From assembly GCA_963803145.1 (NCBI GenBank), contig CAWDLW010000025.1, positions 100,655 to 164,654 of the forward strand: a stretch of DNA of 64,000 bases, given 5' to 3'. The notes below the pieces were generated by a model, which saw nothing but the letters and a program-made list of their open reading frames with translations, was not told where the DNA came from and did not search any database. The position numbers and the translations under genes are program-made. Positions 46,454 to 50,140 of this stretch are shown here, one piece after another. Each line of letters starts with the position of its first letter. Within the stretch, counting starts at the first letter, position 1. This stretch comes from Methanotrichaceae archaeon (GTDB lineage Archaea; Halobacteriota; Methanosarcinia; Methanotrichales; Methanotrichaceae).

Positions 46454-47214
46454 ATGCTATTATCTCCTTCAATCATTTATAAGTGTTTATATGAATTTCT
46501 TACATTTTCAGCGATGATTTTCTATGAGTATCTCAGCAATATTTCCTGGATCTACGGATCTGACCTCGTAACCTCAAAACTTCCTGTCTTTTAGAAATCG
46601 GCAAAATTATAAGAAGAATTTACAAAAAGGGGTTAGACAGCCCTCAGATATTTAGAAGCTGTTACAGTTGTAACAAATATTAGCATTGCGACAGATCGGT
46701 TGAATTTGGCAGAGCTTAACAAGGGCTTTACAAAGGCTCCGCTGAAACTTCCATTTCGCTTCCCAAAGACAGGATCTGTTAACTCTCGTAAATCCTATGC
46801 TAAGCAGTTGATTTCCTGGCGTCGTATGGTGCGTGTATTTCATCGTTAATTCTGTGGCCGTCCCCTTTGGATATCATTAAAGATGTCATAAGCCCCAGAG
46901 GAAATGGGTGGCTATTTTATGGGTTTTTGTGCTCTGGCTTGAGCCCTTTGTCTTCTTTCAGCTTGTTTTTCTTGCTTCTTATCCAATCGTGGCGTATTTC
47001 CCGTTTCTTTCTTGAAGAGGTTTATCAAGATTGATCCCTTCTGCTATCTAACGATTAATAAGTTATAATAGGCCTACATGTATTTAGTTTATTCCCTTAG
47101 TTGTCTGGCATCATTGCCATGCCTAACCAGCTCTGTGCTCATTAGATGATATTGCTCTAAATTACTCGCTTTATTTCCCATGAAAAACCTTCCTCAATTA
47201 AAAGAAATGGGGTG

Positions 47215-47832
47215 CTATCCACCCCCTACCGAATGTCTATTCTTCAAGTGATAAAAGGCGTCTACGATAGCAGCCACTCCATCCTTCAATCGCTCATCTT
47301 TGGATAGATAGAGGAGGTCCCTTTTGACTGGTTTTGATGTATCAGTAGTGCATTTGTTATCTTGATATAGCTCTTGATTGATCAGCAGATGATAAATTAT
47401 TGTGATTAATTTCCGTGCTAAAGCAGTGATCGCTACATTGTAACTCTTTCTGGCCGATAATCTATGGAAGTACCTTGAGAGCTTGTTCTTGTTATTTCTC
47501 ATCTTAGCTATCACTTGAGCTATCTCGACAAGCATAGTTCTGAGACTCTTGGACCCCTGTTTCGTAATACCACATTGCTTCTTTTTCCCTGCAGATTCGT
47601 GTAGTCCAGGAACCAATCCACACCATTTAGCGATTTGTTCTGGGGTTTGGAAATCGCGATAGTCACCGATTTCTGCCAAGATGGTCGACCCTGATCTAAA
47701 ACTTATTCCTGGAATTGACATAACTATTGCCAGATCTTTAGCGCTTTTCTGAAATCTGCTAAGCACTTCAAGACTTGTTTTATCTATCTTCTTTTTCAGA
47801 AGATCAAGGAGCTCTAGATTATCCTTAACAAG
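47215..47832 (-). pseudogene. IS110 recombinase C-terminal half
   Basis: SIPGI, ILAEIGD..DF, GLVP..HESAG (catalytic Ser), ALARKL motifs. Confidence 0.9.
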
Positions 47833-47840
47833 CATTCTCT

Positions 47841-49065
47841 GGTCGTGTATGCGTTCCGATGAAATAGTTATATGTTTATAATGATACATTCTTTAAAAGG
47901 GATGTATCAAAAATGTCTGATATTACATTGTCCGATTACTGGTGCCATCATGAAGGCTGCCAGGATTATGGCATAAACGATAAAGGCAACATAGTGATAA
48001 AAGATCACTATGGAAAGAACAACCGTGCGCTCTTGAAGTGTAGAACATGTGGTCATTGTTTCAGCGAGACTCGCGGAACAATATTTTTCGGTTTAAGCAC
48101 ATCAGATGAGGAAGTCTTAGATGTCCTGGCCCAATTGGTAGAAAAAGGCAGTATTCGTGGTGTTGCAAGATCTACAGGTCATGATAAAAATACAATCTGC
48201 CGATGGCTCAAAAGGGCAGCGGATCATTGCAAAGAGGTCAATGATTACTTCCTGAACCATCTTCATCTTACACAAGTGCAGATAGATGAAATATGGTCAT
48301 TTTGTAAAAAAACAAAAAAATGTAAGTAGCTATGACTCAAAAGACGTTGGTGACGTATATAGTCTGACAGCAATAAATGCTGAATCAAGGTTACTAATCT
48401 GCCATCATGAAGGTGGCCGAACTATAGAAGATGCAACTGCCTTATTTAGTGACTTAGAACATAGACGGGCGACAGGCACACCTCTTCCGGTATTCGTTTC
48501 CGATGATTGGGATCCATTTTCCAATGCCCTCCTTGAAGTCTACGGTGTCAAGGAGACGCCTGAATACAAAGGACTAGGCAGAAAACCAAATCCTATACTT
48601 GTTCCTCCTCCTGACCTTAAATATGCTCAAATTGTGAAAAATAAAAAGAATGATGAAGTGGTTAACACATTTGAACGGATTGTATATGGTGACCCGAAAG
48701 ATGTGCTTGAACTGCTTTGCCCAACATCGAAAGAACATATCCAGACATCCTACGTCGAACGAATGAATCTCACTTTCAGGAATTATCTGGCCAGGTTTAT
48801 ACGTGAGTCTATGAACTTTAGTAAAGATAGGCAAATTCATACCGGCGCAATAGACTTTTTCCAAGCTTGGTACAACTTCGTTAAGCCGCATGATTCTTTA
48901 AAAATTGAGATAAACCTTGACATGGAAGAAGTGGGATTCGCTCTGAATCCTAAAAAATGGATCCCTCGAACGCCTGCGATGGTTGAATTGATTACCGACC
49001 ATATTTGGACTATGAAGGAGTTAATGACTTGGAGGATCCCATTTCAATAGGTCACATACACAACC
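47841..49065 (+). mobile_element. IS1-family insertion sequence
   Basis: GGTCGTGTATG/CATACACAACC TIRs; TSD CATTCTCT/CATTCTCG (7 of 8 match). Confidence 0.85.
47913..49050 (+). CDS. IS1-family transposase (InsA/InsB-like), probable programmed -1 frameshift
   Basis: Zn finger plus HTH, QIDEIWSF, then slippery A7CA7 at ~48305-48319; SDDW and VERMNLT in the second ORF. Confidence 0.85.
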
Positions 49066-49707
49066 CATTCTCGAAGTATCATCAAGACCGTTTGCAAGAG
49101 CCGCTTTGATGACGTCTCGCTTTTTCTTGATCTTCTTTGAAGTGATTCTGTCCAGGATCGAGTCTGCATCCTTGCCTTCAACCAGGCCATCCAAGATAAT
49201 CCTGCCTGATTTTCCAAAGGTGTCTGAAATACAAGAACTCAGCTTTATGCCGCAAAGTGCCAGATACTTATGAACTCTGTTTCTAAGTTGAGTTTGAGTC
49301 TTTATATATCCTGATCTGGCACGGGTCATCATTCTGAGGGCTCGATCCTCATTGGAAAAGACTCTTGATCTCTTGATTTTGCCATCCAAGCAGTTACCTG
49401 CAATCCTCTTAGCGTCATGAGAATCCGACTTATCCCCTAGAAGTCCTTTGACCATCCATGGATTTGCTACAATTGTATCAATAGAGGGACTCAGGCAATC
49501 GTATACTGGAAACCAGTAAACACCTGTAGCTTCGAATGCTACTTGCTCGCAATTATTGGCTATGAGCCAATTCCTGAATCTCTCTAGCTCCGAACGAGTC
49601 GTGCCAAACTGTTCCTGGATTTCAGTCCCATCTGCATCTTCGATCGTGGCTACTATGAGATCTTTATGGACATCTGCTCCGCAAACTCTATTTCTTCGTT
49701 TGCCCAT
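49066..49707 (-). pseudogene. IS110 recombinase N-terminal DEDD half
   Basis: GADVHKD, FEATGVYW, KSDSHDA motifs; joins the C-half in frame (419 aa) once the IS1 is removed. Confidence 0.9.
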
Positions 49708-49720
49708 ATATGTCGCTATC

Positions 49721-49873
49721 CTGATATGGGCAGATGATTAAGATTAATCCCTTATAGGGGGTAATTTCCCATGCGCGTTCAACGACGCAGCCCCGTATTC
49801 ACGGGATTATTGGCCAGTTTTAGCCGCGAGATCATGATCTCAAAAATAAAGCTGCCTTCACTGCCCATATCAG
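49721..49873 (-). ncRNA. Bridge/seek-RNA-like guide of the IS110
   Basis: 13-bp closing helix; internal loops match both target flanks and one donor end. Confidence 0.75.
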
Positions 49874-50140
49874 ACTAATCATAGTTGGCCATGAATGTGA
49901 GGTTTTTCATCAGCCACGTATGACCCTTAAGGGTCATGGGCGTTTTAGCCCTATGAAGTTAGAACCTTTTTCAAGCATTGTTTCGACATACAAATCCTCC
50001 GATATATGGGCACAGATTATAGGGCACATTTCCATTTTAACAATTATAGAGAAATCCTGATATATCCCATAAGACATGTAAGAGGAGAAACAATAAGTAA
50101 TAGGTATTCGAAAATAACTTTCTTGCTTGGAGGGAATCCC

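Follow-up and report, generated by a model that had tools for sequence, protein, structure and literature searches.

A 64,000-nucleotide stretch of the genome of a Methanotrichaceae archaeon (GenBank assembly GCA_963803145.1, contig CAWDLW010000025.1, positions 100,655 to 164,654 of the forward strand), hereafter called the window and numbered from its first letter, carries an insertion sequence (IS) of the IS110 family on its minus strand, between positions 47175 and 49945. Very probably, the DEDD/Ser recombinase of this element is aimed at its insertion sites by an RNA that stems from the element's own 5′ non-coding leader. Our analysis establishes the RNA family to which the leader belongs and the secondary structure of this family, and it shows that three of the loop strands covary in sequence with the elements' flanks and right end. 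From homology with IS621 and the seekRNA systems, we infer that the RNA is made, that it is bound by the recombinase and that recombination proceeds through a circular donor. An RNA-guided element of this family had been proposed in an earlier note, which was made from the letters of the window alone, and that reading is now supported by covariation over dozens of natural guide variants.

A leader RNA family whose loops covary with flanks and right end

The leader RNA, which is bridge- or seek-RNA-like, comprises 153 nucleotides (49721-49873, minus strand) and was matched at exactly these coordinates, with 145.2 bits, by R1, a covariance model that we built from 18 leaders. It is closed by a perfect helix of 13 base pairs, in which CTGATATGGGCAG (49873-49861) is paired with CTGCCCATATCAG (49733-49721) and which stops 13 nucleotides before the ATG of the recombinase gene; this helix and all of the loop strings lie where the earlier note had placed them. 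The predicted fold (-61.7 kcal/mol, z = -4.13) was equalled by none of 200 shuffled sequences. In 67 of 69 related loci, R1 matched a leader over its full length, in sense orientation and upstream of the gene (52-166 bits), and the 16 antisense matches all remained at or below 25.8 bits. R1 detects exactly nine leaders in the host genome, which is the number of element copies present there, and, among 151 genomes sampled from the phylum, it matches 8, the host included. Rfam contained no match to the leader at E values up to 10 (two chance matches elsewhere had E values of 1.8 and 8.7), and R1 finds nothing in IS5075 or in the closest plasmid-borne homologue (Alicyclobacillus, 35% identity).

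Among 58 aligned leaders, 89.2% of the cells are paired, and changes on both sides were observed in 31 of the 34 pairs, a level reached by 0 of 500 shuffles, which is a count that overstates significance, the loci being mutually related and their alignment (A3) having been fitted to the model; slid controls gave 9-13 such pairs. In the closing helix, compensatory changes affect 12 of 13 pairs; they also affect all four pairs of the basal stem of the first loop and all four modelled pairs of the hairpin by which this loop is split (49828-49841, minus strand). The hairpin of the second, or donor, loop (49774-49789, minus strand) is paired in 100% of the 58 sequences, with compensatory changes in three of its five pairs. 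Near-invariant stretches of the scaffold remain between relatives at 45% amino-acid identity, the scaffold being more conserved than the protein.

In the orientation of the element, the junctions read ...GGCTA-AA-ACGCCCATGA... on the left and ...TCATGGG-AA-(flank) on the right, in agreement with those previously claimed, GCTTTATTTCCCATG at 47168-47182 and CATGGGCGTTTTAGCC at 49935-49950. Both junctions have in common a core dinucleotide, AA in the element and TT on the plus strand, which lies at 47175-47176 on the right and at 49944-49945 on the left (minus strand in both cases) and whose register was fixed by comparison of the nine copies and of other lineages. The left-flank half-site of the target, GGCTA, occupies 49946-49950, and the right-flank half-site, ATAAAGC in element orientation, occupies 47168-47174 (both minus strand).

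These half-sites are found again in the first loop of the leader, the target loop, which on the minus strand is made up of GCUUUAUUU (49852-49844), the splitting hairpin (49841-49828) and GGCUAAA (49825-49819). Its 5′ strand (GCUUUAUUUUU, 49842-49852, minus strand) is the complement of the core and the right flank, and nine contiguous nucleotides including the core pair with the right half-site of the window copy. Its 3′ strand (GCGGCUA-AA-AC-U, 49816-49827, minus strand) reproduces the left half-site identically and continues with the core and with two handshake-like nucleotides. The matches in the window exceed chance, since a 9-nucleotide match of the 5′ strand to the right-junction window occurs in 1 of 1972 pairings with the guides of other elements, and a 3′-strand match of at least nine nucleotides in 36 of 2368 such pairings.

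The same correspondence holds across the family. The longest match of the 3′ strand to the 50 nucleotides upstream of an insertion averages 7.61 nucleotides for an element's own guide, as compared with 4.64 for those of other elements (64 insertions, 38 guides), and that of the reverse complement of the 5′ strand to the right-junction window averages 5.43 and 3.62, respectively (58 insertions, 35 guides); in both tests, 0 of 10000 permutations reached the value obtained with own guides. The wrong-sense controls were null, as this value was reached by 9126 of 10000 permutations for the 3′ strand and by 6728 of 10000 for the 5′ strand. The covariation of loop guides with flanks that the earlier note had anticipated across copies and homologues is thus present on each strand. 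Lineages use different insertion sites, each of which is mirrored in the leader of its own lineage: left flanks ending in ...CCCT, ...GATTG and ...TGCGG go together with 3′ loop strands ...CCCU-AA-AC, ...GAUUG-AA-AC and ...UGCGG-AA-AC, and the right flanks TGTGGGA, ATCCGTGC and ACGGCGG go together with complementary 5′ strands. Further lineage sites are ...GGCTA-AA and ...CACAG-AG. In 41 of 46 cases, the two nucleotides that follow the core in the 3′ strand are those with which the left end begins, and the matches include variants other than AC, namely TC (4), AG (2), GA, AA and TT. As in the handshake of IS621-type bridge RNAs, nucleotides beside the short guide therefore match the other DNA.

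A third strand follows the right end of the element. This donor-loop 3′ strand (CAUGGG-AA-AUU-A, 49762-49773, minus strand), in which CAUGGGAAA stands at 49773-49765, carries the right end, the core and the start of the right flank, and reads YAUGGG-AA-AUU in the host genome. Its mean match to the right end plus core is 8.00 nucleotides for own elements and 5.96 for others (0 of 10000 permutations), and the strand varies with the right end, CATGGG being accompanied by AUGGG and CATAGG by AUAGG. Of 56 cases, 41 have the first flank nucleotide directly after the core of this strand, compared with a mean of 26.8 on shuffling (0 of 5000 shuffles as high), and 14 agree with the flank at both nucleotides after the core, compared with a mean of 6.9 (4 of 5000).

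In the arrangement that we propose, the RNA of ~153 nucleotides would hold two modules within its 13-base-pair closing helix. In module 1, the target loop, a short basal stem leads to an internal loop that is topped by a distal hairpin; its 5′ strand would read the core and the right flank (~7+2), and its 3′ strand, consisting of ~5 nucleotides of the left flank followed by the core, would base-pair with the target's bottom strand. The AC after this 3′ strand, identical to the first two nucleotides of the left end, has the position and the logic of the IS621 handshake guide. Module 2 has a strand in which the right-end sequence AUGGG is followed by the core and by the first nucleotides of the right flank. 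The geometry is in effect that of the IS621 bridge RNA with both DNAs turned round.

At a locus with three adjacent copies in another genome (L045/L046, G363:C12), one copy is inserted in the leader DNA of its neighbour, directly after the flank-plus-core sequence of the guide. This is the position to be expected if that sequence of the guide defines the target, and the insertion amounts to a natural self-targeting event by which the target loop of the invaded copy was destroyed.

Recombinase gene, element ends and copies

The recombinase gene of the window copy lies in two pieces on the minus strand, 49707-49066 (ATG at 49707) and 47839-47215. The 5′ part (49066-49707) encodes the DEDD RuvC-like domain (PF01548, 67.6 bits), and the 3′ part (47215-47839) the Tnp domain with the catalytic Ser in HES (PF02371, 83.4 bits). 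The stop codon is at 47215-47217 and the right end at 47177, so that the non-coding stretch downstream of the gene is only ~40 nucleotides long. The protein was matched with 250.6 bits by the NCBIfam model NF033542, "IS110 family RNA-guided transposase" (cut-off 140), and it matches IS621 with an E value of 1.4e-12 (50.4 bits). Its D, E, D, D and Ser residues, in the contexts CGAD, FEATG, KSDSHDA and HES, align with those of IS621 (residue numbers from PMC11208158, with a presumed offset of 2 in the numbering of the PDB chain). The two features that define the IS110 family, an N-terminal RuvC-like DEDD domain and a C-terminal Tnp domain with catalytic Ser, are thus both present. The earlier note had the gene rebuild to 419 amino acids with these residues intact: the residues are indeed intact, and the 419 amino acids are read from sister copies (an intact one is L002:1744-3003), the copy in the window being interrupted. 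Identity with IS5075 is 25% over 292 amino acids (77.8 bits); judged by sequence similarity, the protein is distant from both the IS110 (IS621) and the IS1111 (IS5075) reference groups. Recombinase matches at E values of at most 1e-30 were obtained in 111 of 392 genomes of the class, the host counted.

The interruption is due to a nested IS1-like element of 1233 nucleotides (47833-49065, plus strand, one copy of a 7-base-pair duplication included), with open reading frames (ORFs) at 47913-48329 and 48286-49050. It is matched by PF03400 with 25.9 bits (cut-off 24.1), its match to NF033558 staying under the cut-off, and its end sequence is found again at 12 other places of the genome. The uninterrupted form exists as well, as position 47832 is joined to 49066 in contigs of three DNA runs, with seven shared letters. 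The two ORFs of the IS1-like element overlap, and an A-run between them suggests a frameshift site.

The window copy is thus dead and cannot itself make recombinase. It is one of nine copies of the IS110 element in the host genome (G000, 51 contigs), the 5′ parts of these copies being 97.6-99.6% identical to that of the window copy. The host genome carries mcrA, a gene that is also present in methanotrophic archaea, and the host is accordingly a methanogen or a methane-oxidizing relative; a methanogen, as assumed in the earlier note, is plausible on account of mcrA rather than demonstrated.

The right end of the element (47177-47190, minus strand), which is kept in all copies, consists of the CATGGG terminus and an 11-nucleotide inverted repeat, AGGTTTTTCAT. 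The partner of this repeat (47180-47190) is an internal left-end sequence, ATGAAAAACCT in element orientation, at 49900-49910 of the minus strand; a site ~35-45 nucleotides inside the left end is thereby paired with the right terminus, and other lineages keep the pair with changed letters. The left terminus, ACGCCCATG (49935-49943, minus strand), was delimited by comparison of copies and lineages. It is overlapped by an 18-base-pair palindrome, ATGACCCTTAAGGGTCAT (49920-49937), and other lineages again keep the hairpin with different letters; both the inverted repeat and the palindrome might serve in protein binding or as a junction promoter. Near both ends, subterminal inverted repeats CCCATGA / TCATGGG are present, and the element has in this way the subterminal inverted repeats of 7-17 base pairs by which IS1111 elements are recognized. 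The mixture of features reported in the earlier note, namely an upstream RNA, subterminal inverted repeats, a TT core (AA in the element) and a ~7+2 / 2+5 geometry, is therefore real.

A miniature derivative of ~70 base pairs, in which the start of the left end (hairpin plus internal repeat) is fused to the right end, was noticed in the host genome (L010:1503-1572; G000:C8, near 285880-285950). It has neither leader nor gene and adjoins a copy of the genome repeat described below, in the opposite orientation. In relatives, the loci orthologous to that of the window diverge before the insertion site; in a genome of the same genus (L087, G288:C100), which is orthologous to window positions ~47120-50080, a tandem repeat of 9-nucleotide units takes the place of the region around the insertion site.

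Target repeat and CRISPR-repeat lineage

The preferred target of the IS in the host genome is a repeat of at least 110 nucleotides. Seven of the eight copies for which both flanks are visible, as well as one copy at a contig end, are inserted at the same position of this repeat, which is present at ~80 places of the genome (86 BLAST matches with one flank, 61 anchored copies). The repeat is often located between small cassette-like genes (for example, PIN-domain and antitoxin-like ORFs), and its copies are often 1-2.7 kb apart; examples in the host genome are L083 (C8:431000-441500), L084 (C23:45000-58500) and L085. At the site of the window copy, the left half resembles the target repeat and the right half is unlike it. 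Nothing in Rfam matched the target repeat, and the idea that it could be an attC-like or otherwise structured element was rejected, as its fold is no better than that of shuffled sequences (z = +0.30). The genome contains 13 tyrosine recombinase matches.

Within the same IS family, a lineage of relatives with 62-66% amino-acid identity inserts right after the conserved 3′ end, ...ATTGAAAC, of CRISPR repeats (L015, L016, L020, L042, L043, L046, L047 and L050-L052). Ten of the 17 insertions of this lineage are situated inside CRISPR-like arrays with a period of 72-76 nucleotides, the array continuing on both sides of the element, and for such insertions the right flank is a spacer. The 3′ loop strand of the lineage is GAUUG-AA-AC. 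A comparable case was described for IS1000 of Thermus, an IS110-family element of which 32 base pairs of the end are identical to a CRISPR repeat (PMC6352166). Like the lineage observed here, IS1000 has an element end at a CRISPR repeat; it is bacterial, and the portion of that paper available to us gives no explanation in terms of RNA.

Competing explanations and relation to known systems

Several observations weigh against the view that an RNA from the leader guides the recombinase. The window copy is itself unable to produce recombinase, and none of the RNA runs holds the element; one run guessed to be RNA (X20) yielded contigs of a relative that cover 49427-49741 and cannot show transcription. 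The 14-nucleotide empty allele predicted in the earlier note could not be recovered, with no match in the host's own genome or in the fetched loci, and two genomes of the same genus diverge at the site. As for the structure, one modelled helix is unsupported (57.6% paired), two folds of the donor module, with long-range P3/P4 pairing or with local hairpins, fit about equally well, and the shuffle counts are inflated in the manner stated above. The 5′ strand of the target loop does no better than background (longest match of at most 4 nucleotides) in 23 of 58 insertions, and in L002 and L005, which represent the repeat-borne copies, its longest match is 3 nucleotides, only the window copy reaching 9. 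Finally, comparison of the core plus left end with each leader, sense and antisense, over 45 unique loci disclosed no guide strand for the left end, which reproduces the remark in the earlier note that one donor half lacks a clean match. The candidates for such a strand were rejected: they were matches of 4-6 nucleotides that lie mostly inside the closing helix, together with one 8-nucleotide match in L023, and the best recurrent 6-mer belongs to the closing helix itself. The poor matches of the 5′ strand, the spacers that serve as right flanks in CRISPR-like arrays and the missing left-end strand suggest that target choice is dominated by the left-flank side, a point on which a preprint about half-match recombination (10.64898/2026.08.31.748434) may have a bearing.

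The same lack of a left-end guide also speaks for an explanation in which the RNA would guide target choice only, with the recombinase relying on the subterminal inverted repeats and on the left-end hairpin to read the donor ends, and with the match between AUGGGAA and the right end arising as a by-product of repeated end-like motifs. Motifs resembling ATGGGC/GCCCAT do appear repeatedly, at either end of the element as well as in the donor strand and on each strand of the closing helix; the 11-12-nucleotide inverted repeat and the terminal hairpin are kept across lineages with changed letters; and end recognition may differ in IS1111-type elements according to Siddiquee et al. (PMC11187229). 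We nevertheless consider a target-only RNA rather unlikely, given that changes of the right end are accompanied by changes of the donor strand (CATGGG occurring with AUGGG and CATAGG with AUAGG; 0 of 10000 permutations) and that, in 41 of 56 cases, the nucleotide after the core of this strand agrees with the right flank, as expected for a handshake guide of the donor loop.

Two other explanations dispense with a guide altogether. The leader, which immediately precedes the start codon, could, with no RNA run holding the element, be taken for a structured 5′ untranslated region by which the recombinase mRNA would be controlled in its translation or stability, the likeness to the flanks being a relic of the formation of the element. 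This is very improbable: the loops change together with the flanks over 35-38 guide variants, and in the correct sense only, the scaffold outdoes the protein in conservation, and such RNAs serve as guides in homologues whose structures have been solved (PMC11208160; PMC11208158). The protein alone might also recognize a fixed site, the loop matches being coincidences in A/T-rich sequence, and it is true that the core region is an A-run in which registers are ambiguous. We can give this explanation next to no credence, since the lineages target quite different sites, each of them mirrored in its own loops, and it is contradicted by the permutation tests (0 of 10000).

If guidance by the leader RNA is retained, it is tempting to suggest, albeit as a doubtful possibility, that these elements form a phylum-wide archaeal clade with hybrid recognition. 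The RNA would read only the target and the right end, the protein would read the left end via the terminal hairpin and the inverted repeats, and insertion could require no more than a match of flank, core and handshake nucleotides on the side of the left flank. This might let some lineages colonize the conserved 3′ ends of CRISPR repeats whatever the adjoining spacer, either as RNA-guided parasites or as disablers of CRISPR arrays.

With IS621 (PMC11208160; PMC11208158), the element shares a recombinase with DEDD and Ser residues, the placement of the RNA in the left end, upstream of the recombinase gene, an internal loop that is divided by a hairpin and bears a long guide (~7+2) on its 5′ side and a shorter one (2+5) on its 3′ side, two handshake nucleotides located 3′ of the short guide (PMC11208158), and an intergenic repeat as natural target. 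In contrast to IS621, the guide order is mirrored here, the 5′ strand reading the right flank and the 3′ strand the left flank, the 13-base-pair helix encloses both modules, subterminal inverted repeats are clear, no guide is recognizable for one donor half, and the recombinase has 419 instead of ~326 amino acids and is only distantly similar. R1 and Rfam have no family in common.

The mirrored order is that of the IS1111-type elements ISEc11, ISPa11, ISKpn4 and ISPst6 (PMC11187229), with which the element further shares matches that overlap in the target, subterminal inverted repeats, and insertion that is specific in site and orientation. In their seekRNAs, the complement of the top strand is placed 5′ of the match to the bottom strand, the opposite order being found in the IS110 type (PMC11187229). 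The earlier note was thus right about guides reading the target antisense to the element, but this order is not unusual in itself; what is unusual is its combination with an upstream RNA. The RNA is encoded upstream in IS110-type elements and downstream in IS1111-type ones, of which a few have an upstream non-coding region (PMC11187229); unlike here, the non-coding region and the RNA of the four elements named above follow a gene for ~340 amino acids, compared with 419. IS4321/IS5075 and other IS1111 members (cited in PMC11208160) also insert into repeated, non-coding sequences, as the present element does, but they are bacterial elements. As far as its sequence can be read, the element is therefore a combination of IS1111 traits (guide order, subterminal and 11-nucleotide repeats) with the RNA position of the IS110 type.

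That the IS110 family occurs in archaea was stated by both papers of 2024 (PMC11208160; PMC11187229), and 662 archaeal homologues of its recombinases have been counted in a preprint, the available portion of which describes recombinases and not their RNAs (10.1101/2024.06.21.599552). The supplements of PMC11208160 and PMC11187229, with predicted RNAs of ISfinder elements, may already include archaeal members. Our literature search yielded no description of an archaeal bridge or seek RNA and no RNA-based explanation for IS110 elements in CRISPR repeats, supplements being outside the search and absence accordingly unproven. To our knowledge, bridge and seek RNAs have so far been characterized in bacterial elements.

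The known mechanism is unchanged by these findings. By uniting IS110 and IS1111 features, the element bears on the evolutionary move of the RNA between element ends, and the seat of one lineage in CRISPR repeats is of biological interest, be it as a safe harbour or as an attack. With its 35-38 guide variants from nature, the conserved RNA scaffold of these archaea constitutes a ready-made reprogramming table, and the recombinases of this family are candidate programmable enzymes native to mcrA-bearing archaea, in which genetic tools are few.

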